From an uncultured Acidimicrobiaceae bacterium (GTDB taxonomy: Bacteria > Actinomycetota > Acidimicrobiia > Acidimicrobiales > RAAP-2): 64,000 nt of DNA. The position numbers were made by a program, and so were the translations under genes. The notes under the pieces are model-generated. The model was given only the letters and a program-made list of their open reading frames with translations. It was not told where the DNA came from and searched no databases. Below are positions 4,616-39,335 of this stretch, one piece after another (the first letter of the stretch is position 1; each line of letters opens with the position of its first letter). The stretch lies in assembly GCA_963769095.1 (NCBI GenBank), contig CAVYKO010000009.1, forward strand, positions 15,510 through 79,509, read 5' to 3'.

Positions 4616-7562
4616 GCCCCGGCCGACTTGCCACCATCCGCCAGCTCGGCGGTGGCGTGTCGTTGTTCCCCCTGGGCGTGCTCGCGGCGATCCAGTTGCT
4701 CGACCAAGCAACGCAGAGCGCCTTCAACGTGCTGACGCCGAACATCCGCGACGCCTTCGGGCTGACCAACGCCGGGATCCTTCTCATCGTCGCCGTCGCC
4801 GGCGCCGCCGGGCTGGCGTGCACCCTCCCGGTCGCCGTGCTCGCCGACCGCATGAACCGTGTGCGCATCGCCCTCATCGGCGCCCTCATCGGCGCCGCCT
4901 TCTCCATCGGCGTCGGCCTGGCCAACTCGGTGGTGCTGGTCACCGTCATGCTCGTCGGTGTCTACATGGGACAGGCCGTCATCTTCCCCACCCACAACTC
5001 CCTGCTGGCCGACTACTACCCGGTGCCCGCCCGTCCACGCGTCTACTCGACGCACCGGGCGGGATACAGCATCGGCGTCATCGCCGGCGTCCTGATCGGC
5101 GCCGGGTCTCGCCACCCTCTTTTCGTGGCGCGCACCGTTCCTGATCTTCGCGGTGCCCATCATCATCGTCGTCATCATCGGGACCCGCCTGCACGAGCCG
5201 CCGCGGGGCCGGCACGAACAACTCGAGCTCTCGGAACAGATGGTGGCGTCCGAGCTCGGTCAGCCCGCGCCCCTCGGTGACGCGCCGGTCGTCGACGCAC
5301 CGGTGGAACCGCCGCCATCGTTGGGCGAAGCCTGGCGCACGGTCTGGAAGGTCAGCGCCCTGCGCCGCATCTTCATCGCCCTGCCCTTCCTCGCCGCCTC
5401 GATCGCCGGCTTCGCCTCGTTGGCCTCGTTGCAGTACCAGCAGACCTTCCACCTCGATGCACTCCAGCGCGCGTACCTCACGGCACCGGTCGAAGTCTTC
5501 GACCTCCTCGGCCTCGCTGTGGGTGCAACGATCGCGACCCGCCTCGCCAAGCGCGAGGTCGGGCTCGTGTTCCGCATGCTCGCCGTCGCCTCGCTCATTG
5601 CGGCGGGGTTCGCTGTGCTCTTCGCACTGGCTCCGAACGTCCCCGTCGCGTTCATCGGGAACGCCGGCATCGTCGCCTGCCTCGCCGTGGTCGGTCCCGG
5701 CGTCCTGTCGTCCCTGTCGCTCGCCATCCCGGCCCGTGTCCGTTCCGTCGGGTTTTCCATCGGCGCGCTGTTCGTGCTGCCGGGGCTCCTCGTGCTCCCC
5801 ATCGTCGGGGGCATCGGCGACGCGATCGGGTTCCGCTACGGCCTCTTGCTGCTCGTGCCCGTGTTCACCGTCGGCGGGTTGATCGTGGCGAGCGCCGGGA
5901 GCCTCATCGGAGATGACGTCCGCGACGTCTGGACCTCCATGCGTACGAGGACGCAGATGTTGGCCGACCGTCGCGACGGCAAGCTGCCCCTGCTCGCCGT
6001 GCGCGACCTGCGCGTGGGCTACGACGGCGTCCCGGTGCTCTCCGACGTGGCGATCGAGATCGGCGAGGGCGAGATCGTCGCCATCGTCGGGACGAATGGA
6101 GCCGGCAAGTCGACGCTGCTGCGGGCGATCGGCGGAGTCGTCGAGGCGGACAACGGCGCCATCGTCTTCGACGGGCGCGACATCACGCACCTGCCGCCGG
6201 ACGAGATCGCCCGCCTGGGCGTGGCCCAGGTGCCCGGCGGGGAGGGGACGTTCCCGAGCCTGCGCATCGAGGAGAACCTGCGGGCCGCCGCCTGGCAGGG
6301 CCGCCGGCGTGGTGAGAGCGACACCCAGATGATCGAGGACGCCTTCGCCGCCTTCCCGACCCTCGCCGAGCGCCGCGGCGAGCGGGCCGCCAACCTCTCG
6401 GGTGGGCAGCAGCAGATGCTCGCGCTCGCCATGGCGACCATCACCCGGCCCAAGCTGTTCCTCATCGACGAGCTCTCGCTCGGGCTCTCGCCGATCGTGG
6501 TCGAGCAGCTGCTCGGGGCGATCGAGTCGATGCGCGCAGGCCGGCACGGCCATCCTGCTCGTCGAGCAGTCGATGAACGTCGCCGTCGCGGTGGCGGACC
6601 GCGTCTACGTCATGGACACCGGCGTCGTGCGGTTCACCGGTACGGCCGCCGAGCTGGCCGCCCATCCCGAGCTGCTGTGGTCGGTCTACCTGCAGAAGGC
6701 GTCCGACTCGCTCGCGGCCCAACCCGCCGGGCCCCGTCCCGGACGCGACGGCCACGAACTCGAGGTGCGCGGGCTGGCGCTCAGGTTCGGGGGCAACGCC
6801 GCCCTCGACGACGTGTCGCTGCACGCCGGCCACGGCGAGCTGGTCGGGATCATCGGCCCCAACGGCGCCGGGAAGACGACGCTGTTCGACGTCGTCTCGG
6901 GTTTCTTGCGGCCCGACGAAGGCAAGGTCGAGCTCTGCGGCGTCGATGTCACCGATCGCACGGCCGCCAGCCGGGCTCGGCTCGGGCTCGGCCGCTCCTT
7001 CCAGGACTCGCGCCTATTCTCCGCTCTCACCGTCCGGGACGCCCTGGCCGTCTCCCTCGAGCGGTTCACCGACGTCGCCGACCCCTTCAACGCGATGCTC
7101 CGCCTGCCCGTGCTGGTGCGCACGGAAGCGGCGGTCCGGCGGCGGGTGGACGAGCTCATGGAGATGTTCGGGCTCGAACGCTTCGCCGACAATCTCGTCA
7201 GCGAGCTGTCGACGGGGTCGCGGCGGCTCGTCGACCTGGCCGCCGTCGTCGCGCACCAGCCCACTGTGGTGCTCCTCGACGAGCCTTCGTCGGGAGTGGC
7301 GCAGCGCGAGGTGGAGGCGATGCTGGGGTTGCTCCGCAACGTCCGCGACCAGCTGGACGCCACGATGCTGATCGTCGAGCACGACATCGCCTTCATCGCG
7401 GAGCTGGCCGACCGCCTTGTGGCGATGGACCGGGGCGCGGTCATCGCCAGCGGCCCGCCGGCCGACGTCCTGCAGTCGCCCATGGTGGGCGAGGCCTTCC
7501 TCGGATCCGACCCGCTCGCGCTCTCGCGGACGGGTCCTGTTGCGGGCGCCGGAAGCGAGTGA
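4612..7562 (+). CDS. MFS-like 12-TM domain fused to two Liv-type ABC ATPase domains (LivF-like then LivG-like); two apparent frameshifts
   Basis: GTG 4612 overlaps the permease stop (GTGA). The N-terminal ~430 aa are two six-helix halves with a central loop. The first ATPase shows VRDLRVGYDG, GTNGAGKSTLL, LSGGQQQMLALA, LIDELSLGLSP. The second shows LEVRGLALRFGG, GPNGAGKTTLF, LSTGSRRLVDLA, LLDEPSSGV. The frame changes at ~5105 (GGG run) and ~6536. The pieces are ORFs 2512..5280, 5153..7567 and 6402..7562. Confidence 0.75.
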
Positions 7563-26815: not shown

Positions 26816-27886
26816 ATGAAGCTCCCCGTCACGCCCCCGGTCTCGCCCATGCTGGCCAAGCTCACCCGGGATCTTCCCCGGGACCCGGGGTTGTACTACG
26901 AACCCAAATGGGACGGGTTCCGCTGCATCGTGTTCCACGACGGCGACGACGTGGAGCTCGGCAGCCGCAACGAGAAGCCGCTGACTCGATACTTTCCCGA
27001 GCTCGTCGACGCGCTCCGCCGCGAGCTCCCGGACCGGTGCGTCCTCGACGGCGAGATCGTCATCGCCGGCCCGACCGGCCTCGATTTCGACTCGTTGTCC
27101 CAGCGCATCCACCCGGCGGCCAAGCGGATCAACCAGCTCGCCGAGGCCACCCCGGCGTCGTTCGTCGCCTTCGACCTCCTCGCCCACGACGAGACCTCGT
27201 ATATGGAGACGCCCTATGCGCAGCGGCGCAAGGTGCTCGAGAAGCTGCTGAAGAAGGCCAAGCCGCCCATCCACCTGACCCCCGCCACCCAGGACCCCGA
27301 CGTGGCGTCCGATTGGTTCTCCCGCTTCGAGGGCGCCGGCCTCGATGGCGTCGTGGCCAAACCCGCGGACCTCCACTACCTGCCCGACAAGCGCGTCATG
27401 CTCAAGGTGAAGCACCAGCGCACGGCCGACTGCGTCGTGGCCGGCTTTCGCACCCACAAGGACGGCGAGGGTGTGGGCTCTCTTCTCCTCGGCCTGTTCG
27501 ATGACGCCGGCACGCTGCACCACGTCGGTGTCGCGTCGGGCTTCAGCGTCGCCCGCCGCCGCGAGCTCGTCGACGAGGTCAGGGCGTACCAAAAGAACGC
27601 CCTCAAGGACCACCCGTGGGCGGGCTGGGCCGAGGCCCAGGCGGAGGGCCGTGCCCCGGGCGCCATGAACCGGTGGAACGCCGGCAAGGACATGACCTGG
27701 GAGCCGCTGCGGCCCGAAGCGGTCTGCGAGGTGTCCTACGACCACCTGCAGGGAAACCGCTTCCGGCACGCCACGTCGCTCGTCCGCTGGCGTCCCGACC
27801 GCGAGCCCTCGTCGTGCACCTACGACCAGCTCGACTCGCCGGTGCCGATGGAGCTACGCGACGTCTTCGGAACGGCCCGCCACTGA
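26816..27886 (+). CDS. ligC: ATP-dependent DNA ligase (LigC-type, ligase domain only)
   Basis: ORF 26816..27886. Adenylation motif I EPKWDGFR, plus LDGEIV, FVAFDLL, GLDGVVAK and MLKVKHQRTAD, followed by an OB-fold part. Confidence 0.88.
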   Translation: MKLPVTPPVSPMLAKLTRDLPRDPGLYYEPKWDGFRCIVFHDGDDVELGSRNEKPLTRYFPELVDALRRELPDRCVLDGEIVIAGPTGLDFDSLSQRIHPAAKRINQLAEATPASFVAFDLLAHDETSYMETPYAQRRKVLEKLLKKAKPPIHLTPATQDPDVASDWFSRFEGAGLDGVVAKPADLHYLPDKRVMLKVKHQRTADCVVAGFRTHKDGEGVGSLLLGLFDDAGTLHHVGVASGFSVARRRELVDEVRAYQKNALKDHPWAGWAEAQAEGRAPGAMNRWNAGKDMTWEPLRPEAVCEVSYDHLQGNRFRHATSLVRWRPDREPSSCTYDQLDSPVPMELRDVFGTARH

Positions 27887-27990
27887 CCAGACAAAATTCG
27901 CGCCCGACCTACGGGCGGCGACCGTTCTCCGGCGTGCCCGCATCCGACCCCACACCCACTGTGCCGCCGCAGCTCAGCGACGTGGCCAAG

Positions 27991-29097
27991 ATGTCGAACC
28001 ACGAGATCATGGAGCTGGCCGCCGAGTCGGCTGGCCGCATGGCCTCCTTTGCGGGCCTCATCCTCCTGCTCACCGGCGAACTCGACCGCCGCGAAGGCTG
28101 GCGAGACGAGGGTGCCACCTCACTCGAAGCCTGGATGGTCGAGCGCCTCGGCGTGTCCGTTCCGACGGCCCGGTCGTTCGCCCACGTCGGCGAGCGCCTC
28201 TTCGACCTTCCTCGCTTGGCTGCCGGCCTTTCCTCGGGCCACCTCAGCTTCGACAAGGTCCGGGCGGTGGTCGACGCCGCCACGCCCGAGACAGACGGCG
28301 AGCTCAGGGAGCAGGCCGAGGCACACACCGTGCGCGAGCTGACCCACCTGGCCCGCTCTCGCAGGGAGGCCTCGGCCAACACGGCGCGTGCGGACTACGA
28401 GGCGCGGTCCCTGCGTTTCAACGAGACGTTTCGGACCGTGACGGCGCAACTCCCTGCCGAGACCTTCGCCGAAGTACGCGGGACCCTCGAGGCAACGGCT
28501 CGCCAGCTTCCCTCAGACGGCGAGACGCCTTGGGACCAACGACTGTGCGACGCCTTTGTCGGTGTGGTGCGCGGTTCTCGCGACTCCGGGGGCGCGGGGC
28601 CGGCGTTCACGGTCGTGGCGCACACGCCGCTGAACACGCTTCTCGACGAGACGTCCGATCTCCCGGGTGAGCTCGAGCGGGACGGCTTGATCAGCGCCGA
28701 CACCGTCCGGCGCCTCGCCTGTGACGCCACCGTCATTCTCGCCGTCGACGACGAGGTCGGTCACACCATGTACGAGGGCCGGGCGCAGCGGTACCCGACC
28801 CAGACCCAACGTCGTGAGCTCATGCGGCGCGACCGCCACTGCCGGTTCCCCGGTTGCGCCCATGCGACCTTCGTCAACCCCCACCACATCAAATGGTGGA
28901 AACCTCACGCCGGAACGACCGACTTACCGAATCTGGCCATGCTCTGTGAGCACCATCATCACCTCGTGCACTCCAAACAATGGACACTCTCGGGGAATGC
29001 CAACGAGGAGATCACGTTCATCGGACCGAGCGGCCGGGTCATGACCTCGCGCCCGTCGCCACTGTGGACGAACGTGACGCCACCCCCGCCCCACTAG
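27991..29097 (+). CDS. DUF222 / HNH endonuclease (REP13E12-like actinobacterial family)
   Basis: In-frame ATG 27991 inside ORF 27616..29097 (GTG 27961 is also possible). The N-terminal domain has the LEAWMVERLGVS and GLSSGHLSFDKVRAV signatures. The HNH part reads RRDRHCRFPGCAHATFVNPHHIKWW...LCEHHHHLVH. Confidence 0.85.
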   Translation: MSNHEIMELAAESAGRMASFAGLILLLTGELDRREGWRDEGATSLEAWMVERLGVSVPTARSFAHVGERLFDLPRLAAGLSSGHLSFDKVRAVVDAATPETDGELREQAEAHTVRELTHLARSRREASANTARADYEARSLRFNETFRTVTAQLPAETFAEVRGTLEATARQLPSDGETPWDQRLCDAFVGVVRGSRDSGGAGPAFTVVAHTPLNTLLDETSDLPGELERDGLISADTVRRLACDATVILAVDDEVGHTMYEGRAQRYPTQTQRRELMRRDRHCRFPGCAHATFVNPHHIKWWKPHAGTTDLPNLAMLCEHHHHLVHSKQWTLSGNANEEITFIGPSGRVMTSRPSPLWTNVTPPPPH

Positions 29098-31215: not shown

Positions 31216-31914
31216 ATGGTTGCTCTGGTTGTGGTGGTGACGTTCGTGGTGTTGGTACTCAGCCTCCTCGTCGCGGGGCTACTGCGGAGCCACGCTGACA
31301 TCCTCCGATCACTTCACGAGCTCGGCGCAGGCGTGGGCGACCCGGCTGTCGCAGAGGATGTGGCTCCGGCACCAGGCGGCACTCCCGGCCCTCTGACGTC
31401 GTCGACGAACCAAACGGAACTCGTCGAAGCCCACACGGTTGCCGGACTCACTCCTTCCGGAGACGCGCGTGCCATTGCGATGAACAACAGCGACGGCTTC
31501 ACCCTTCTCGGCTTTCTTTCGTCCGGGTGCGCAACCTGTTCGGGGTTCTGGGAGGCGCTCCAAAGTCCCGACGGTTTGGAGCTGCCCGATGACACCCGCG
31601 TCGTTATCGTCACCAAAGGACCGGACCGGGAGATACCGGCCGAGGTGGCTGCAATGACAACCGGGCATGTCCCGGTGGTGATGTCCACCGAAGCTTGGCT
31701 CGACTACCAGGTCCCCGGATCACCCTTCTTCGTCCTCGTCGACGGCAGCACTGGTCTTACCGTCGGTCAGGGAGTGGCCGCACACGTCGGCCAGCTCCTC
31801 GATCTCATTCGACGCGCCGAGCATGACCGTGCGCCGCGTCAGCGCCGACGAGGCCGACGTCGAGCAACCGCAACGGGCCGGCCCGCGAGGCCGATGCCGA
31901 CGAGGTGCTCATGA
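31216..31914 (+). CDS. Membrane-anchored thioredoxin-fold protein with CxxC (MauD/TlpA-like)
   Basis: ATG 31216 (GGAGAAGGAGG just upstream) inside ORF 31045..31914. TM anchor MVALVVVVTFVVLVLSLLVAGLL, then LLRSHADILRSLHELG, then a redoxin-like core GFTLLGFLSSGCATCSGFW. The last ~30 codons are Arg-rich with poor codon usage, so the C-terminus is uncertain. Confidence 0.7.
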   Translation: MVALVVVVTFVVLVLSLLVAGLLRSHADILRSLHELGAGVGDPAVAEDVAPAPGGTPGPLTSSTNQTELVEAHTVAGLTPSGDARAIAMNNSDGFTLLGFLSSGCATCSGFWEALQSPDGLELPDDTRVVIVTKGPDREIPAEVAAMTTGHVPVVMSTEAWLDYQVPGSPFFVLVDGSTGLTVGQGVAAHVGQLLDLIRRAEHDRAPRQRRRGRRRATATGRPARPMPTRCS

Positions 31915-32042
31915 TGGCGGGCATCCGTCCCGGTGACCCCAGCCTGTATCCCCAATCCCTCGACGACGTCTTTCCACTCGGCGGTGGGACCGCCACGCCA
32001 ACGAGGCATTTCAACGGCACCGCTCCGGAGCGGGCTGAATAA
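31911..32042 (+). CDS. Possible 43-aa coupled ORF
   Basis: ATG 31911 overlaps the upstream TGA (ATGA), and its TAA 32040-32042 overlaps the next ATG (TAATG). It reads MMAGIRPGDPSLYPQSLDDVFPLGGGTATPTRHFNGTAPERAE. Alternatively it is part of a longer frameshifted ORF starting at ATG 31823. It is too short for the track. Confidence 0.3.
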   Translation: MMAGIRPGDPSLYPQSLDDVFPLGGGTATPTRHFNGTAPERAE

Positions 32043-32530
32043 TGGCAATGATCCGTGCCCACGGGATCGTGGCGCGTCTCCCTAGCGGCTTCGAAGGGCG
32101 GATCTTCGTACGTCCACCGACGGTGGGCACGAGCTATCCGGTCGGGCAGTTCTCGACCTTCCCCCTCCCCGATGACATCGGGGACTTCGGCAGCGGCGCG
32201 GTCAACCTCATGGGTGTCGACGATGTCTTTGCCACCCTGTTCGAATTCGGGCCGGAAAGCCTCGGAACTGCGCTGTTCAGCCATCAAGGACGGCCGACCG
32301 CGTTCACTCCGGGGGACTTCTCACCGGTTCGGCTACGCCGTGGACTCCCGGGCCAGTCAGGTACACAGTGGTTCTTCACCGAGGCCGGGCGGCCCTTCTC
32401 GTTCTACGCCGTTCTCGGGAGCCACCTCAGACGCGACGTGCTCGTCCCGGGCGTCAATGCACTCTTCTCGTCACTCGTCATCAGTCCGTCAGGGTCGACG
32501 ACCCAAGCCCCCGCGCCGCTATGGAACTGA
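32042..32530 (+). CDS. Hypothetical cytoplasmic protein (162 aa)
   Basis: ORF 32042..32530. Codon usage is good, there is no signal peptide or TM helix, and I recognised no motif. It is coupled on both sides (TAATG upstream, 10-nt overlap downstream). Confidence 0.6.
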   Translation: MAMIRAHGIVARLPSGFEGRIFVRPPTVGTSYPVGQFSTFPLPDDIGDFGSGAVNLMGVDDVFATLFEFGPESLGTALFSHQGRPTAFTPGDFSPVRLRRGLPGQSGTQWFFTEAGRPFSFYAVLGSHLRRDVLVPGVNALFSSLVISPSGSTTQAPAPLWN

Positions 32531-33095
32531 TCGGCGTCTTCTTCGTGGCCTGCGGCCTCCTCGTCGCCGCCGGGGCCGCCAAGGCGCTCCGGCCCGAAGA
32601 CACCGCTCGCGCGACTCGTCCTCCTCAACCCGCATGGGAATGCATTCGCACCGTCGTTCCGTCTGACTCGACTCGCGGTGAGGATTGGGGCCTTCCTCGA
32701 AGCGGCACTTGGTGTGGCCGCGTTGGTCTTTCCGCGGCCGCTCACCGCCGCGTTGGTGGCCGTCTCGTACGCGCTGTTCGTCGTCGTGGTGGCCTTCGCC
32801 AGAAGCCGTGGCGGAGCACTGTCCACCTGTGGCTGCTTCGGGCGCCCCGATACTCCCGCCACGATGGTGCACCTCGCGATGAACGTCCTCCTCTGTGCGG
32901 CGGCGATCGTTGTTGCGCTCCGCCCGCCCGATGCGACCTCGCTCTTCGTGCTACTCGAGCACCAGTCCTGGCTCGGCCTTCCGCTGCTCTTCGTAAGTGC
33001 CGTCGGCGTGTGGGTGACCTATCTGGCCCTTTCGCCTTTGGCCACCCTGGAGGCCGCCCGCCGTCTCGTCTCAGAAGGCGGCGACGAGCTCGTGA
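32521..33095 (+). CDS. MauE/DoxX-like redox-associated membrane protein (apparent frameshift near 32612; own stop not evident)
   Basis: ATG 32521 gives MELIGVFFVACGLLVAAGAAKALRPEDTARA (frame of ORF 32368..33492). It continues as LVLLNPHG...RIGAFLEAALGVAALVFP...GGALSTCGCFGRPDTP... (frame of ORF 32678..34465). The CGCFG motif and 4-5 helices are as in MauE. As sequenced it runs on into the next gene. A TGA at 33093-33095 in the +1 frame would form a GTGA overlap with GTG 33092. Confidence 0.65.
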
Positions 33096-33112
33096 GCCTG
33101 ACGACGGCGCTG

Positions 33113-34465
33113 ATGGAGCGGACGTCGGCCTTTCTCGACAGTCGGCTGTCCCGTCGCAGTCTGATCAACCGGTCGGCGTTCGTCGGCAGCGCTGTTGCCA
33201 TCGGCTCCGGGGTGGATCTCGCCCTCAAGCCCGGAACCGCCTATGGGCAGATCTGCGAGTGCGGGAATGCCGGGTGTGGCTGTGGCAGCACCTGTTGTTC
33301 GGGGTTTTCCGAGTTCTGTTGCTCGGTCAGCGGTTACAACTACTGCCCCGCGAACACCGTGATGGGTGGATGGTGGCTCGCCGACAACTCGTCGTACTGC
33401 GGCGGACCGCGCTACTACATGGACTGCAACGCCACCTGTTCCTGCGGTACCGGATGCAGCAGCGGGTTTCCCTTCTGCGAGCCCGGTTGTGACGCGACGA
33501 ACTGCGGCTGCGGGCCCCAGGGGTGCGACTCGTTCCTTACCGGATGTCTGCAATTTCGATACGGCCAGTGCAACCAGAACATCGCCTGTCTGGGTCGGAT
33601 CGTCTGCCGGGTGGTCGCCTGTGTCCCGCCGTGGCAGGTGGACCCTTCGTGTACGACCGCAGTGGCCGTCGACAACGGCACGGCCGAGCAGAACGAGCCG
33701 TGTTGGACGCCGGCGCCACCCTCGGTTCCCGTCGTCGCCATGGCCTCGAGCGTCAGCGGCCACGGCTACGGGGTCCTCACGATCTTCGGGAAGCTGTTCG
33801 CTTACGGGGACTTCCCTGCTGCCGGCGACGCGTCCGGACTGCAACTCGAAGCGCCGATGGTCGCCTTGGCGAGCTGCCCCACCGGCGGTTACTTCATGGC
33901 GGCGTCCGACGGCGGCATCTTCGACTACGGAGGTGCACCGTTCTACGGTTCGATGGGCGGACAGCACCTGAACGCCCGGATCGTCGGAATGGCCACGACT
34001 CGCACCGGCCGGGGGTACTGGCTGGTCGCGGCCGACGGAGGGATCTTCGCCTACGGCGACGCGCTGTTCTTCGGTTCCATGGGCGGGCGGCACCTCAATT
34101 CCCCGGTCGTCGGCATGGCGCCGACCCCGACGGGGAAGGGCTACTGGCTCGTCGCGGCCGACGGCGGGATCTTCGCCTACGGCGACGCGCTGTTCTTCGG
34201 TTCCATGGGCGGACGACCGCTCAACTCCCCGGTCGTCGGCATGGCGCCCACCACGACGGGCAAGGGGTACTGGCTCGTCGCGGCCGACGGCGGGATCTTC
34301 GCCTACGGCGACGCGCTCTTCGATGGGTCAGCGGGCTCCATTCACCTGAACCAGCCCGTGGTCGGGATGGCCCCCTTTGGCAAAAACGCCGGCTACTGGC
34401 TGGTCGCAGCCGATGGCGGGATCTTCACCTACGGCGGCGCCCCGTTCCTCGGGTCACCCGCATGA
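33113..34465 (+). CDS. Tat-signal protein: 26-Cys MauA-like domain fused to ~42-aa beta-propeller-type repeats
   Basis: Part of ORF 32678..34465, from ATG 33113 (or GTG 33092). MERTSAFLDSRLSRRSLINRSAFVGSAVAIGSG is a twin-arginine signal. There are 26 Cys between 33248 and 33712, including CCSVSGYNYCPANTVMGGWWLADNSSYCGGPRYYMDCN. Five full repeats plus a short final one of GYWLVAADGGIFAYGDALFFGSMGG-x-LN-x-PVVGMA follow. Confidence 0.75.
   Translation: MERTSAFLDSRLSRRSLINRSAFVGSAVAIGSGVDLALKPGTAYGQICECGNAGCGCGSTCCSGFSEFCCSVSGYNYCPANTVMGGWWLADNSSYCGGPRYYMDCNATCSCGTGCSSGFPFCEPGCDATNCGCGPQGCDSFLTGCLQFRYGQCNQNIACLGRIVCRVVACVPPWQVDPSCTTAVAVDNGTAEQNEPCWTPAPPSVPVVAMASSVSGHGYGVLTIFGKLFAYGDFPAAGDASGLQLEAPMVALASCPTGGYFMAASDGGIFDYGGAPFYGSMGGQHLNARIVGMATTRTGRGYWLVAADGGIFAYGDALFFGSMGGRHLNSPVVGMAPTPTGKGYWLVAADGGIFAYGDALFFGSMGGRPLNSPVVGMAPTTTGKGYWLVAADGGIFAYGDALFDGSAGSIHLNQPVVGMAPFGKNAGYWLVAADGGIFTYGGAPFLGSPA
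33764..34462 (+). repeat. 126-bp (42-codon) tandem coding repeats; three near-identical copies at ~34013-34330
   Basis: TACTGGCT(G/C)GTCGCGGCCGACGG(A/C)GGGATCTTCGCCTACGGCGACGCGCT recurs at 34016, 34142 and 34268. More diverged units lie on both sides. Confidence 0.9.
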
Positions 34466-35289
34466 CCAACTCCAAGAAGGGACGCGCAATGACCATCGCG
34501 CTCGCCGTTGCCGCCTGCACCATCGCTCTCGTCGCCGCGCTCCGGTCGACCTGGTCGCCCTGTGGGCTGTCCATGTTGGCCACCATCACCCCCCTGGCCG
34601 AACAAGGTCGCGGTCACCGGTATCGGACGACCGCCTGGTGGTTCGTCACGGGGAGCATCATCGGTGGTGCCTGTCTCGGGGGGGTCATGGCCCTCTTGGC
34701 GGCCGGAGTCGCGACAACCCACGTCTCGGCTTCTGCCACCGCGGCCATTGCGGCGGTCGCGTTCCTCGTCACCCTGGCCGCCGATGCGCGTGTCGGAGGT
34801 TTCCGCCTTCCCGTCCATCACCGTCAGGTCAATGAGCGCTGGCTCGATCAGTTTCGTCCCTGGGTGTACGGAGCGGGGTTTGGGTGGCAGATCGGCTCCG
34901 GCCTGGCGACGTACATCAAGACCTGTGCCGTGTACCTGATGATCCTGCTGGGGGCGCTGACCGGGAGCCCCACAACGGCGGTCGTCGTTGGCGTCGTCTT
35001 CGGCCTCGGGCGCGGCCTGGCCGTCTTCTTGGGTCGGCGCATCACCAGCACCGCCGCACTCGCCGACTTCCATCGACGGTTCATGGCCGCCGATCCGATT
35101 GCCCTGACCGTGGTGGTGGCCTGTGAGGCGGTTGGGGCAGTGATGTTCTCGGTCGTCGCCGCGCCATGGCTTGGCGCCACCGTCACCGCGCTCTTCGGCC
35201 TCACGATTGTCGCCTGGAGTGTCCGCCGACGTCACCGGAATGCCCTTCGCCCCATGGCAACCGACGCTCGCTCCGTGACGGTCCCGTGA
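34462..35289 (+). CDS. Polytopic membrane protein with Cys inside TM helices (CcdA/DsbD-like thiol-disulfide transporter candidate)
   Basis: ATG 34462 overlaps the upstream TGA (ATGA). It is the tail of ORF 33523..35289. It has about 6 helices, with STWSPCGLSMLATITPL and YIKTCAVYLMILLG Cys-in-helix motifs. The family call is tentative. Confidence 0.6.
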   Translation: MTNSKKGRAMTIALAVAACTIALVAALRSTWSPCGLSMLATITPLAEQGRGHRYRTTAWWFVTGSIIGGACLGGVMALLAAGVATTHVSASATAAIAAVAFLVTLAADARVGGFRLPVHHRQVNERWLDQFRPWVYGAGFGWQIGSGLATYIKTCAVYLMILLGALTGSPTTAVVVGVVFGLGRGLAVFLGRRITSTAALADFHRRFMAADPIALTVVVACEAVGAVMFSVVAAPWLGATVTALFGLTIVAWSVRRRHRNALRPMATDARSVTVP

Positions 35290-35382: not shown

Positions 35383-36184
35383 TTGGCGGACGTGGATGGC
35401 ACGCTCGTCACCCAGGACAAGGTGCTCACCGACGCGGCAGCGGACGCGGTACGCCGTCTGGACGATGCGGGGGTTCGTTTCGCCATCACCAGCGGTCGTC
35501 CGCCTCGGGGCATGCAGATGCTCATCGACCCGCTCGACCTGCGCACGCCGATTGCCGCCTTCAACGGGGGCATCGTGGTCGATCGGGACATGAACACCAT
35601 CGAACAGCGATCCCTCCCCGAAGACCTCGTAGGACCAGTGATCGCACTGATGAAGTCCTTCGAACTCGACGTCTGGCTCTACCGGGGCGCCGACTGGTAC
35701 GTGACGGACCCCAAAGGTCCCCACGTCGACCGCGAGGCATGGACGGTCAAGTTCGACCCCAGCGTCGTCGACGACTACGCGGCATCTGACCGACAACGTC
35801 GCCAAGCTCGTCGGCGTGAGCGACGACCACGACGCCGTCCTCAAGGCCAGCGAAGCGGCGCACGAACAGTTCGGCGACCACCTCACGGCTGCCACGTCCC
35901 AGCCGTACTACCTGGACGTGACGCACCCCGACGCCAACAAGGGCTTCGTCGCCCGCTACCTCGCCCAGAAGTACGGACTCGAGGAAGCCGAGATCGCCAC
36001 CATCGGCGACATGCCCAACGACATCCTGATGTTCGCCCACTCCGGGCTGAGCATCGCGATGGGCAACGCCGACCCTCAGGTCAAGCGCGCCGCGCGCCGC
36101 GTCACGGCGAGCAACGAGGATGAGGGCTTCGCCATGGCCGTTGAGCGCTTCGTGCTACCGGCCGGCGCACCCCAGACGGCCTGA
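35383..36184 (+). CDS. HAD-superfamily Cof-type phosphatase (apparent frameshift near 35783; start unclear)
   Basis: ORF 35383..36123 (TTG start) has motif I DVDGTLV and motif II TSGR. The C-terminal part is ORF 35816..36184, with KG (ANKGFVA) and GDMPNDILMF. The beta-strand AIRLLLA preceding motif I lies upstream of any canonical start. Confidence 0.8.
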
Positions 36185-37300: not shown

Positions 37301-38683
37301 TCAGACCCCCCGGTGGTTCTCGAACCGGGCGTACTGCTTCAAGAACAGCAGGTTCGCCTTCCCGGTCGGACCGTTCCGGTGCTTGGCCACGTCGATCAAC
37401 GCATCGTCCGCCCGGTCGATCGGCACCTCGTCGTTGTATTCGGACTCTCGATAGATGAACATCACCACGTCCGCGTCCTGCTCCAGCGACCCCGATTCGC
37501 GCAGGTCCGACAGCTGCGGCGTCTTGTCCGTCCGCGTTTCGAGGTTCCGGGACAGCTGCGACAGCGCCACCACCGGGACCTCCAGCTCGCGGGCCAGGAT
37601 CTTCAGGCCTCGGCTGATCTCGGCCACCTCGTTCTGACGGTTCTCGGCCCGCCCCCGACCGGTCATCAGCTGCAGGTAGTCGATGACCACCAGCCCGAGG
37701 TCCCCCGCCGACTTCTTCAGCCGCCGGGCCCGGGCCCGGATGTCCATCACCGTCACGGCCGGGTTGTCGTCGATGTAGATCGGCGCGTTCGACAGCCGGG
37801 TCACCGCCGTCCCGATCTTCGCCCAGTCCTGGGTGCGGATCCGCCCGTTCTGCAGGTTCTGCCCGTTCACCTCGGCCTCCGACGCCAGCAGGCGCTGCGT
37901 CAGCTCCAGGTGGCCCATCTCGAGCGAGAACAGCAACGCCGGCCGCTGCACCACCATGCCGACGTGCGCCAGGATCCCCAAAGCGAACGACGTCTTGCCC
38001 ATGCCGGGCCGCGCCCCCACGATGTTGAGCGTCGAGGGCTGGAGCCCCAGCAGCAGGCGGTCCAGGTCGTGGTAGCCGGTCGGCACTCCGGTGATCTCCG
38101 ACCCCCGCTGCCCCAGCTCCTCGATCCGGTCCAGGCCCTGCATCAAAAGGTCGTGCAGCTGGTGCATCGTGTCGGCGCCCCGCCGCTCGGCCACGTTGAA
38201 CACCATCTGCTCGGCGTCGTCGACGGCGGCCTTCACGTCCTCGGGCACCGAGTACCCGATGTCGGCGATCTCGCCGGCCACGCCGATCAGCTTGCGCAGC
38301 AACGAGTGCTCTTCGACGATGGCGGCGTAGTGACGGGCGTTGGCGATCGACGGCGTGTTCGCCTGCAGCGAGATGAAGATCGACGGGTCCCCCACCTGCT
38401 CGAGCACCCCCGAGCGCTTGAGCTCGTCCGTCACCGTCACGGCGTCGATCGCCTCGCCCCGCTCCATCAGGGCCACGATCGCCCCGAAGATGTGCCCGTG
38501 CGCCGGCTTGTAGAAGTCGCCCGACGAGCACTTCTCGATCCCGACCGACGCCGCGTCGTTGGACAGCAGCATCGCCCCGAGCAAGGACTCCTCCGCCTCG
38601 AGGTCGTGGGGCGGCACCCGCGCCCCGGCCACGGGGGCGGGGCGGAGCGGTCGGGGGCGGGTGTCGTCGAAGGCTTGAACCAC
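37301..38683 (-). CDS. dnaB: Replicative DNA helicase DnaB
   Basis: ORF 37301..38749(-). PPHDLEAEESLLGAML, Walker A GARPGMGKTSFALG, Walker B VVIDYLQLM, ALSQLSR, RESGSLEQDAD. The protein is contiguous with no intein. I prefer GTG 38683 (GGGGAG upstream); the track start is GTG 38749. Confidence 0.95.
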   Translation of the reverse strand: MVQAFDDTRPRPLRPAPVAGARVPPHDLEAEESLLGAMLLSNDAASVGIEKCSSGDFYKPAHGHIFGAIVALMERGEAIDAVTVTDELKRSGVLEQVGDPSIFISLQANTPSIANARHYAAIVEEHSLLRKLIGVAGEIADIGYSVPEDVKAAVDDAEQMVFNVAERRGADTMHQLHDLLMQGLDRIEELGQRGSEITGVPTGYHDLDRLLLGLQPSTLNIVGARPGMGKTSFALGILAHVGMVVQRPALLFSLEMGHLELTQRLLASEAEVNGQNLQNGRIRTQDWAKIGTAVTRLSNAPIYIDDNPAVTVMDIRARARRLKKSAGDLGLVVIDYLQLMTGRGRAENRQNEVAEISRGLKILARELEVPVVALSQLSRNLETRTDKTPQLSDLRESGSLEQDADVVMFIYRESEYNDEVPIDRADDALIDVAKHRNGPTGKANLLFLKQYARFENHRGV

Positions 38684-38734
38684 GGCTCCCCTACTCTGAC
38701 GGCCGCACGCTGGGGAACGTAAGGACGAACTTGC

Positions 38735-38797
38735 TGTGGGTAACCGCACGCGACATGTGGGTAACCGGGGGCGTAAGCACGCCCGCCATGTGGATAA
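38735..38797 (-). promoter_or_regulatory. Three same-orientation DnaA-box-like 9-mers upstream of dnaB
   Basis: TGTGGGTAA at 38735-38743 and 38756-38764, and TGTGGATAA at 38789-38797. On the dnaB strand these read TTACCCACA x2 and TTATCCACA, the exact E. coli-type consensus. Confidence 0.55.
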
Positions 38798-38885
38798 GCC
38801 GTGTACGAACGACCGCGCTCACCCCGAAATCATGAGCACACTGCTGCGACACATTCGGGGATCCACCGCCCCGAGCCGCCGGGAC

Positions 38886-39335
38886 CTAGCCGGCGGCCGT
38901 GACCTCCACCGTGACGACGGTCGAGACGCCCGAGAACAGCTCGACCGTCACCTCGAAGGTGCCGGTCTCCTTGATGTGGTCGGGCAGCACCACGTGCTTG
39001 CGGTCCACCTCGACCCCCTTGGCCGCCCGGATCGCGTCGACGACGTCGGCGGGGCCGATGGAGCCGAAGAGGCGTCCACCCGCCGCGGCCCGGGCGCTGA
39101 TCGGGATCACGGCGCCGGCCAGCAGGCCCGCCTGCCCCTCGGCCGCGGTCCGGTCCTGGGCCTCGCGCAGGTCGCGCCCCCGCCGCATCTGGGAGGACTG
39201 CCCCTCGAGCCCCTCGGTGGCCACGATGGCCCGCCCCTCGGGCAGCAGGAAGTTGCGGGCGAAGCCGCCGGCCACCTTCACGATGTCGCCCCGCCGCCCC
39301 ACGCCGGCGACGTCGTCACGCAGGAGGACCTTCAC
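38886..39335 (-). CDS. rplI: 50S ribosomal protein L9
   Basis: ORF 38886..39335(-). [32 protein letters not shown] is the canonical L9 N-terminus. It belongs to the rpsF-ssb-rpsR-rplI operon. Confidence 0.95.

Follow-up and report, generated by a model that had tools for sequence, protein, structure and literature searches.

A five-gene Mau-type locus around a cysteine-rich protein in Acidimicrobiia: a candidate maturation module without methylamine dehydrogenase

Introduction

What do Mau-type redox proteins serve where methylamine dehydrogenase (MADH) itself appears to be missing? The question is raised by a locus at positions 31216–35289, on the forward strand, of a 64,000-nt stretch of DNA from an uncultured Acidimicrobiaceae bacterium (assembly GCA_963769095.1, contig CAVYKO010000009.1, positions 15,510–79,509); this whole stretch is referred to as the window. 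In the mau cluster of methylotrophs (mauFBEDACJGLMN), the accessory genes mauF, mauE and mauD are needed for MauA, the small subunit of MADH. A preliminary description of the window, made from its letters alone, had read the locus as a Mau-like redox-maturation cluster of six chained genes around a Cys-rich protein with a twin-arginine signal, and had left its nature between a self-contained quinoprotein-like enzyme and a disulfide-knotted surface protein. Here, five genes are distinguished, denoted g1 to g5, which encode a distant relative of MauD, a soluble protein, a MauE protein, the Cys-rich client and a homologue of MauF. The reading that we favour, with a probability of about 0.6, is that of a self-contained module of the Mau type, which matures an exported surface protein knotted by disulfides and works without MADH.

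Conservation of the five-gene module

A scan of 185,579 species-representative genomes returned relatives of the locus in 245 stretches, of which the best 80 loci were compared. Nearly all of these are titled as metagenome-assembled genomes (MAGs) of Acidimicrobiaceae or Acidimicrobiales, and the nearest relatives of the region are MAGs with the same labels. Wherever the contig allows, the five genes follow one another in the same order in 80 of 80 loci; between a quarter and a half of them lack the flanking amidohydrolase, hydrolase and dnaB genes. Five more distant loci, with Cys-rich domains ~50% identical, gave matches to hidden Markov models (HMMs) of g1 to g4 in every case and to that of g5 in four of the five. 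The gene orders of distant loci are MauE–Cys–g1–g2 in the cultured Actinospongicola halichondriae and g1–g5–g2–MauE–Cys and others elsewhere. Where metagenome loci extend at least 2.5 kb in either direction, each of the five families was found (15 of 15 loci, at least three gene orders), with g1, g5 and g2 always consecutive in that sequence. Co-occurrence of the genes across related genomes, as presumed in the preliminary description, is thus borne out, and its persistence through rearrangement is strong comparative evidence for what would be one functional module. We read the region as a putative operon of five genes, conserved in soil Acidimicrobiia.

Two complete five-gene copies were encountered on different contigs of a single MAG (MFD01716.bin.2.94; L065 and L066), which may represent genuine paralogues or a mixture of strains. 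A single cultured relative was examined, A. halichondriae (L083; CP171622.1, 2061434–2076306); its cluster is close to P-type ATPase and CopC genes and directly preceded by the gene of a 382-aa FG-GAP-like repeat protein.

Identification of g5 as a MauF homologue

The last gene of the module, g5 (34462–35289), encodes a polytopic membrane protein and starts either at ATG 34462, which overlaps the g4 stop, or at ATG 34489, as in relatives. The protein had been likened to CcdA/DsbD-type electron conduits, with attention to the Cys residues in SPCGL and TCAVY. No match to the Pfam families DsbD and DsbD_2 (PF02683, PF13386) was obtained for 23 family members at E ≤ 5, and that assignment is given up. 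As for the two residues, the Cys of SPCGL (C25; TGT 34561–34563) is indeed conserved, being the single conserved Cys of the family and part of the invariant motif RSTWSPCGLSML; the Cys of TCAVY is not, the family consensus being TAAVY.

A relationship became apparent in comparisons with MauF, MauD and other Mau queries from the canonical mauFBEDACJG cluster of Methylobacterium and with a second MauF from Hyphomicrobium. Methylobacterium MauF matches the g5 HMM with E = 3.9e-16 (hhalign probability 97.3%) and Hyphomicrobium MauF with E = 1.9e-15, and a tblastn search of the window with MauF gave E = 1e-8 at 34501–34980. The families have the motif (L)STWSPCG(Y/L)S in common, which is found in the Hyphomicrobium protein as well and reads LLSTWSPCGYS in that of Methylobacterium. 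On the strength of these matches, g5 is assigned as a clear MauF homologue. No Pfam or NCBIfam model matches MauF itself, which is why g5 looked unannotatable; a PDB profile search with g5 likewise returned no match.

Probable exchange of cysteine and selenocysteine in the MauF family

In three distant loci (L085–L087) the codon of the invariant g5 Cys is replaced by an in-frame TGA, in the context WSP-TGA-GESML (L085:4860–4919, L086:8796–8855, L087:4357–4416), and a 24-nt pattern scan recovered the same arrangement in at least 120 metagenome stretches (loci L088–L207). Gene callers truncate genes of this type at the UGA, and the g5 open reading frames (ORFs) of distant loci appear to begin exactly one residue past the invariant Cys. 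Two hairpins follow the UGA in 109 distinct sequences, the second about 26–47 nt downstream of it, with a GGN loop and 93% paired. Compensatory changes were observed in eight of eight pairs of the second helix, a result equalled in 0 of 500 shuffles and far above that of slid controls; the hairpin alignment columns are independent of the 24-nt search pattern. The arrangement fits the layout of a bacterial selenocysteine insertion sequence. The codon is TGC or TGT in the window, as in each of the 82 close relatives whose site could be read.

Judging from the conserved hairpins, the TGA-type genes probably encode MauF-family selenoproteins of a kind not described before; a literature search found no description of a selenocysteine-containing MauF, and selenocysteine use has been reported in another order of Acidimicrobiia (10.64898/2026.04.03.716425). 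Since the Cys/selenocysteine pair occupies the only invariant Cys of the MauF family, the exchange would mark this residue as a redox-catalytic nucleophile.

The MauE, MauD-like and soluble partners

The product of g3 (32521–33095) had been described as a MauE-like membrane protein with CGCFG. The frame-corrected (stitched) protein matches PF07291 with E = 6e-12 and 46.4 bits against a cutoff of 27, and relatives of g3 are already annotated with this family. CGCFG is encoded at 32828–32842 (TGT 32828–32830, TGC 32834–32836), and among 33 members K21, E60 and C103-G-C105-F106 are invariant, G107 being nearly so. MauE proteins have been reported to carry a CXC active site followed by Phe-Gly, together with a conserved Lys in the first transmembrane (TM) helix and a Glu in the second as putative quinone-binding residues; they functionally replace DsbB in E. 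coli and have been argued to be generalist DsbB replacements in many phyla (10.64898/2026.03.05.709764). Carrying every reported active-site feature, g3 is assigned as MauE and would be a DsbB-like disulfide generator. The family identity of the earlier proposal is thus retained; its single intact ORF is not, since in the window the reading frame of the gene shifts near 32615 and no stop of its own remains.

The first gene, g1 (31216–32042), encodes a membrane-anchored thioredoxin-fold protein of about 275 aa. Its CATC motif is confirmed (TGC 31528–31530, TGT 31537–31539), a TM helix spans residues 1–27, and FLSSGC-x-x-C-x-x-FW, with C105-x-x-C108, is invariant in the family. In the window, the first frame (frame a) stops at TGA 31912–31914, and the conserved C-terminal tail AGI-PGDPSLYP lies in another frame, within a 43-aa ORF (31911–32042). 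Among 18,950 NCBIfam models the sole match is MauD (E = 1.5e-4), below the equivalog cutoff of TIGR02661: the window protein reaches 21.3 bits and that of the relative L002 17.8 bits, against a cutoff of 188.6 and 372.9 bits for canonical MauD. Conversely, canonical MauD matches the g1 HMM with E = 1e-6 (16.9 bits). In the PDB, the nearest match is 4fyb (E = 0.022), a DsbC-like thiol:disulfide interchange protein, in an alignment spanning the CxxC and the cis-Pro region (V-P-x-S-P). The MauD signal is sub-threshold but appears specific, and g1 is classified as a distant MauD-like thioredoxin-fold protein, not a MauD equivalog. An apparent MauE–g1 fusion in L085 (3400–4800) was discarded; the frame of its MauE part is interrupted between TM1 and TM2, and the linker too is seemingly out of frame.

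The remaining partner, g2 (32042–32530), is a soluble protein of 162 aa without Cys or signal peptide, in keeping with its earlier description as a cytoplasmic protein of no recognised family. Pfam, NCBIfam and PDB profile searches gave no match, and comparison with MauJ revealed no similarity. It is always part of the module, and in metagenome loci with a selenocysteine-type g5 it directly follows g1 and g5. Across all ORFs, the Pfam and NCBIfam scans yielded MauE as the sole pass, MauD as a sub-threshold match and nothing else; loose-threshold Pfam scans of individual g1, g2, g4 and g5 family members gave only noise.

A client with a MauA-type leader and a cysteine-rich head

The client, g4 (33092–34465, 457 aa), starts at GTG 33092, with an alternative ATG at 33113. 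It comprises a long, MauA-type twin-arginine leader (residues 1–52, 33092–33247), a Cys-rich domain (residues ~53–212, about 33248–33727) and a six-bladed β-propeller with 42-aa blades (residues ~214–457, about 33731–34462).

The twin-arginine signal is present as described (LSRRSLINRSAFVGSAVAIGSG...TAYG) and combines an S/T-R-R-x-F-L-type motif, a mildly hydrophobic h-region and an A-x-A site, as expected for twin-arginine translocation (Tat). An RR-x-[FLIV] motif is found in 117 of 122 family representatives, and some relatives carry the NCBI name 'twin-arginine translocation signal domain-containing protein'. Comparison of the full precursors of g4 and MauA by hhalign gave a probability of 96.8% (E = 2.7e-10). 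Splitting of the alignments revealed that this similarity arises because the leaders align, which on their own reach 96.7% (P = 4e-10). The leader alignment begins about 14 residues before RR, and the consensus reads LV[DE]R.S..L..RTSRRGFL.R in g4 and LVEKLTRRVAQRTSRRSFLGR in MauA. Nine E. coli control Tat signals score 12–24 and align only from RR onward, against 29–35 for single MauA leaders. By this measure the likeness is specific and extends beyond that of a generic Tat signal; it may reflect either common descent or shared recognition by the Mau machinery. Together with the MauF homologue, the MauA-type leader reinforces the earlier view that Mau-like maturation genes are grouped around a Cys-rich protein with a Tat signal.

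The 26 Cys residues reported to follow the signal are confirmed by count, in a stretch of 167 aa. Among family representatives the number of Cys ranges from 16 to 28 and is even in 114 of 123; the odd-count rows include two visibly frame-shifted sequences (P0131, P0136) that were left out of the later A2 alignment. Moreover, variable Cys covary in pairs (10–19 and 12–24, r = 0.97; 84–88, r = 0.86; 91–106, r = 0.85). Even parity and paired gain and loss are the signature expected of a fully disulfide-bonded domain, and argue against metal clusters as well as against a Cys–Trp cross-link. The domain of g4 probably holds 13 disulfide bonds.

Based on a trimmed, diverse 40-sequence alignment, AlphaFold2 models the Cys-rich domain with a predicted local distance difference test (pLDDT) score of 84.9 and a predicted template modelling score of 0.80; in a full-length model built with 64 close homologues its pLDDT was only 25–35. 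A Foldseek search of the domain model against the PDB gave no match at E ≤ 0.001 (best E = 4.4), a method that is weak on small, irregular, disulfide-rich folds. As Pfam and PDB searches were also without a match, the domain looks like a new family without a solved relative.

The family is large. The Cys-rich part alone retrieved 398 clusters at E ≤ 1e-3 from 1.84 billion representative proteins, and a profile search retrieved 1143 clusters at 90% identity. The domain begins about 46 residues from the N-terminus of family members, and it is followed by varying partners: SLH repeats (E = 3e-27), CWB2 (E = 6e-45) or LGFP repeats (E = 4e-51), the propeller as in the window, a propeller of another kind, Ig-like repeats, or a tail of 60–100 aa only. 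Even at an orthologous, syntenic locus (L084) the protein, at 277 aa, is too short for a propeller. Because the C-terminal partners vary to this extent, the Cys-rich domain appears to be the invariable head of the family, to which interchangeable surface or cell-wall modules are joined on the C-terminal side. The SLH, CWB2 and LGFP fusions elsewhere support the assignment of g4 as a probable cell-surface protein.

In the window, the module in question consists of the roughly six 42-aa repeats noticed before. Six were confirmed, and AlphaFold2 folds them into a six-bladed propeller with pLDDT >90, which resembles generic WD40-like propellers; a PDB profile search of g4 gave only a weak RCC1-like match on the repeats (E = 0.2). 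Tandem Repeats Finder reports a period of 126 nt at 33902–34321, where blades 3–5 form a tandem repeat with 86% DNA identity, which suggests recent duplication or homogenisation of blades. Close homologues of g4 are hypothetical proteins of 455–470 aa with source labels of Acidimicrobiales. The preliminary description knew of no account of this architecture, and our literature search returned none of the client family.

Gene model, frame breaks and flanking genes

The preliminary description chained its six genes by overlapping stop and start signals. The overlaps are there (ATGA 31911–31914, TAATG 32040–32044, ATG 32521 with TGA 32528–32530, and ATGA 34462–34465), and the number of genes is five. 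The 43-aa ORF is the tail of g1: it matches positions 199–242 of the g1 HMM, its last 44 positions, with E = 1e-17, and where the window has ORF1 and the 43-aa ORF, three independent relatives have one gene of 264–275 aa. These reference loci are L002 (a JGI contig) and L001, both fully syntenic, and the genome locus L003; their five genes encode about 264–275, 162, 193–194, 455–457 and 262–267 aa. Relative to all three, a 1-nt deficit near 31851 separates ORF1 from the 43-aa ORF in the window, so that the ATGA 'coupling' at 31911 is artefactual. In g3, an extra base near 32615 places residues 1–31 (from 32521) in a frame other than that of the rest, and an 11-nt deficit near 33074 removes the stop, with g3 and g4 sharing one frame. 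In 79 of 81 relatives the MauE frame terminates in a stop codon where the next gene begins, and the ancestral GTGA overlap of g3 and g4 persists in the window at 33092–33095.

A fourth frame break, relative to L002 and L003, affects an unrelated Cof-type HAD hydrolase at ~35779, yielding ORFs 35383–36123 and 35816–36184, and further candidate breaks lie downstream at 38552, 39721, 40135, 41131 and 41312. Because the hydrolase and probably further genes downstream are also broken, the frame breaks of the window are probably assembly indel errors and not operon decay, as far as comparison with relatives can tell, and the window itself probably derives from an error-prone long-read assembly. Its GC content is about 66–70%.

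Upstream of the module, DUF222/HNH-endonuclease-like, aldolase II and amidohydrolase genes are found (27616–29097), and downstream lies the housekeeping block dnaB-rplI(-rpsR-ssb-rpsF) (37301–39335). The synteny of these flanks is retained in about three quarters of close relatives.

Proposed mechanism

Combining the assignments above, the following sequence of events is proposed. The client g4 would be made with its long, MauA-type leader and exported via the Tat pathway, and the 26 Cys of its N-terminal domain would then be oxidised outside the membrane to about 13 disulfides. MauE (g3), a presumed quinone-linked analogue of DsbB, would provide the oxidising equivalents through its CGC loop and pass electrons to quinone, and g1 would use its CATC motif to hand disulfides to the client or to shuffle them. 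The single catalytic Cys of g5 would most likely serve as a thiol/selenol relay, by which mispaired Cys are reduced or isomerised, or g1 is re-set; such a role is suggested because a 13-disulfide domain would need isomerisation or reduction. The obligatory soluble partner, g2, may accompany the leader in the cytoplasm or act together with g5, and the C-terminal propeller would be an interchangeable surface module outside the redox chemistry. In an alternative wiring, oxidation would fall to MauE, and g5 feeding g1 would form a reducing branch similar to that from CcdA to ResA; this accounts equally well for a TlpA-like MauD and for g1 and g5 being constantly adjacent. The MauE oxidase step would rest on homology with experimentally tested MauE proteins; Tat export, disulfide formation, the direction of electron flow and the roles of g5 and g2 are what we infer from the composition of the module.

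Several points weigh against this proposal. Clients of the Tat pathway normally fold in the cytoplasm, often with cofactors, and Tat export ahead of oxidation on the outside would be unusual. Thioredoxins of the MauD type (TlpA/DsbE-like) are usually reductants; instead of pairing as DsbA and DsbB do, g1 and g3 could act in opposition, on separate branches. With only one conserved Cys, g5 cannot operate as CcdA/DsbD does, and its crude hydropathy is compatible with either membrane side for this residue. In A. halichondriae, no MauF-like gene was found within 7 kb of the cluster. The MauE–g1 fusion of L085 is probably a frameshift or assembly artefact and no Rosetta-stone evidence for the pairing of these proteins. 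Finally, the breaks in g1 and g3, if real, would impair the module in the organism of the window.

Alternative explanations

The preliminary description saw in the Cys-rich core a MADH light chain, joined in one polypeptide to the counterpart of the heavy-chain propeller, and the domain could accordingly be a diverged light chain with a Trp-derived quinone, forming with the propeller a self-contained quinoprotein. The homologues of MauD, MauE and MauF and the MauA-type leader around the domain are what one would then expect. For profile–profile comparison, 116 MauA homologues were collected (the MauA query being identical to 1mg2_B), and a local match was obtained over ~22 columns (DG-x-x-C-x-CC..G..CPPGT, P = 0.005). 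A relaxed alignment places the second Trp of GWW on MauA Trp57 and the Asp-Cys of RYY-x-DC on Asp76-Cys77. The model shows a β-hairpin right after CP-x-x-T, where MauA has a similar run of residues, and the invariant non-Cys residues (GWW, RYY-DC, FRYGQC, CR) are as for an active or binding site. Still, the light chain itself was not recovered: PF02975 matched neither the window protein (E ≤ 0.1) nor any of 40 diverse members (E ≤ 10), PDB profile searches of the domain returned no light chain, and no chain of MADH or aromatic amine dehydrogenase was among the Foldseek matches of the model. The hhalign probability of the mature domains is 7% for the local match, with a second alignment at 1.5% (P = 0.03). 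The partner Trp of tryptophan tryptophylquinone, Trp108, aligns to a non-Trp position, PPW being PPY in part of the family, and even Cys parity speaks against a cross-link of the cysteine tryptophylquinone type. As noted before, mauB, mauG and amicyanin are absent; none was found in the 64-kb window or listed in the related loci examined. (A weak tblastn match of MauG at 6834–7201 is an ABC-transporter ATPase.) The propeller, replaceable or missing even at an orthologous locus, is no constant partner of the domain. The light-chain assignment and the fusion of light and heavy chain accordingly find no support, and the quinoprotein is considered distinctly unlikely. In a variant that we hold to be very unlikely, the domain would be a diverged MauA-type catalytic head, displayed at the cell wall and MauG-independent, with a Trp-derived quinone or another cofactor at GWW and RYY-x-DC; if true, it would define a new class of MauG-independent surface quinoproteins in Actinomycetota, matured by MauD, MauE and a MauF with Cys or selenocysteine. 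A cofactor of a different kind is invoked if the Cys domain binds metal or metal–sulfur clusters in the cytoplasm, the neighbours serving cofactor loading. Tat signals typically mark cofactor-containing proteins, and this explanation would account for the leader; the four N-terminal Cys 10, 12, 19 and 24 appear and disappear jointly, and in Actinospongicola the P-type ATPase and CopC genes lie within a few kb of the cluster. Yet parity is even over 16–28 Cys and the correlations elsewhere are pairwise, not four-fold, no ferredoxin-like or metallothionein-like family was matched, the accessory genes are MauE and thioredoxin-fold proteins instead of Fe–S or Cu chaperones, and the metal genes are not conserved neighbours. 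Metal binding is thus regarded as highly improbable.

Two further explanations question not the disulfides but the module. The products of g1, g3 and g5 could constitute a general extracytoplasmic disulfide system to which the Cys-rich protein is a mere neighbour or one of many clients, in line with the generalist role argued for MauE (10.64898/2026.03.05.709764) and with the housekeeping genes dnaB, rplI, ssb and rpsF that adjoin the cluster in the lineage of the window. The housekeeping genes no longer adjoin the cluster in about a quarter of loci, whereas the gene of the Cys domain stays with g1, g2, MauE and g5 through at least three rearrangements and ~50% divergence. The MauA-type leader suggests specific recognition of the client, and one MAG holds two complete five-gene sets. 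A general system is therefore rated as decidedly improbable. Alternatively, the operon may be decaying in the genome of the window, the breaks in g1 and g3 being real and the module non-functional, as three frame-disrupting indels within 1.3 kb of the operon, relative to three independent relatives, would suggest. This is unlikely: the unrelated downstream hydrolase and probably further genes are similarly broken, g2, g4 and g5 are intact, protein conservation is high on either side of each break, and a few relatives from long-read MAG projects show similarly truncated MauE matches.

Significance and comparison with known systems

If the maturation module is accepted, the MauD/E/F trio would here operate jointly in a setting other than methylamine metabolism, accompanied by a client of its own that bears a MauA-type leader. 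No curated model covers the MauF family, and the literature search found no function assigned to it; the probable Cys-to-selenocysteine exchange points to its catalytic residue and provides a concrete hypothesis for its function. The function of MauF, and that of the MauDEF trio as a unit, are thereby made experimentally approachable. The DsbB-like role of MauE has been proposed only in a 2026 preprint (10.64898/2026.03.05.709764). With up to 14 predicted disulfides and a Tat leader, the client domain offers a test case for Tat export and for oxidative folding by systems other than DsbAB, and the module occurs in at least 245 species-level genomes and many soil metagenomes.

Several known systems may be set beside the module. 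With DsbA/DsbB and the VKOR/thioredoxin-like pairs it shares the combination of a disulfide-generating membrane protein and an extracytoplasmic thioredoxin-fold protein with CxxC. It differs in that g1 and g3 are genetically tied to one client family as well as to g5 and g2, that MauE uses CXC in place of two Cys pairs, and that g1 is TlpA/MauD-like and not DsbA-like. The pairing of CcdA or DsbD with ResA or TlpA is a possible functional analogy for g5 and g1, given a polytopic protein with Pro-Cys in its first hydrophobic region beside a membrane-anchored, TlpA-like thioredoxin; in contrast to these systems, g5 lacks a DsbD Pfam match, has one conserved Cys or selenocysteine instead of two, and is homologous to MauF. 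In Streptomyces, candidate clusters for ribosomally synthesised and post-translationally modified peptides, found with decRiPPter, place mauE and mauD homologues beside Cys-rich precursors (PMC7794033). They resemble the module in that MauE and MauD homologues accompany a Cys-rich presumed substrate in Actinomycetota without the remaining mau cluster. In contrast, the substrates there are short peptides with at least eight Cys and not multidomain clients of 270–740 aa with a Tat leader, and homologues of MauF and g2 are not reported (PMC7794033).

The closest comparison is that with the mau cluster. Both contain homologues of MauF, MauE and, distantly, MauD (with CxxC and an N-terminal anchor), a client with a long MauA-type leader and a small, very Cys-rich mature domain, and tightly packed, co-directional genes. 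Conversely, the module is without mauB, mauG, amicyanin, mauJ, mauL, mauM and mauN, as assessed over the 64-kb window. The g4 domain, at about 160 aa and 16–28 Cys against 12, is not recognisably a MADH light chain and is fused to surface or cell-wall modules, g2 is an additional obligatory gene, and the hosts are Acidimicrobiia and not Proteobacteria. The module is evolutionarily related to the MauA-maturation part of the mau cluster, and serves an undescribed client.

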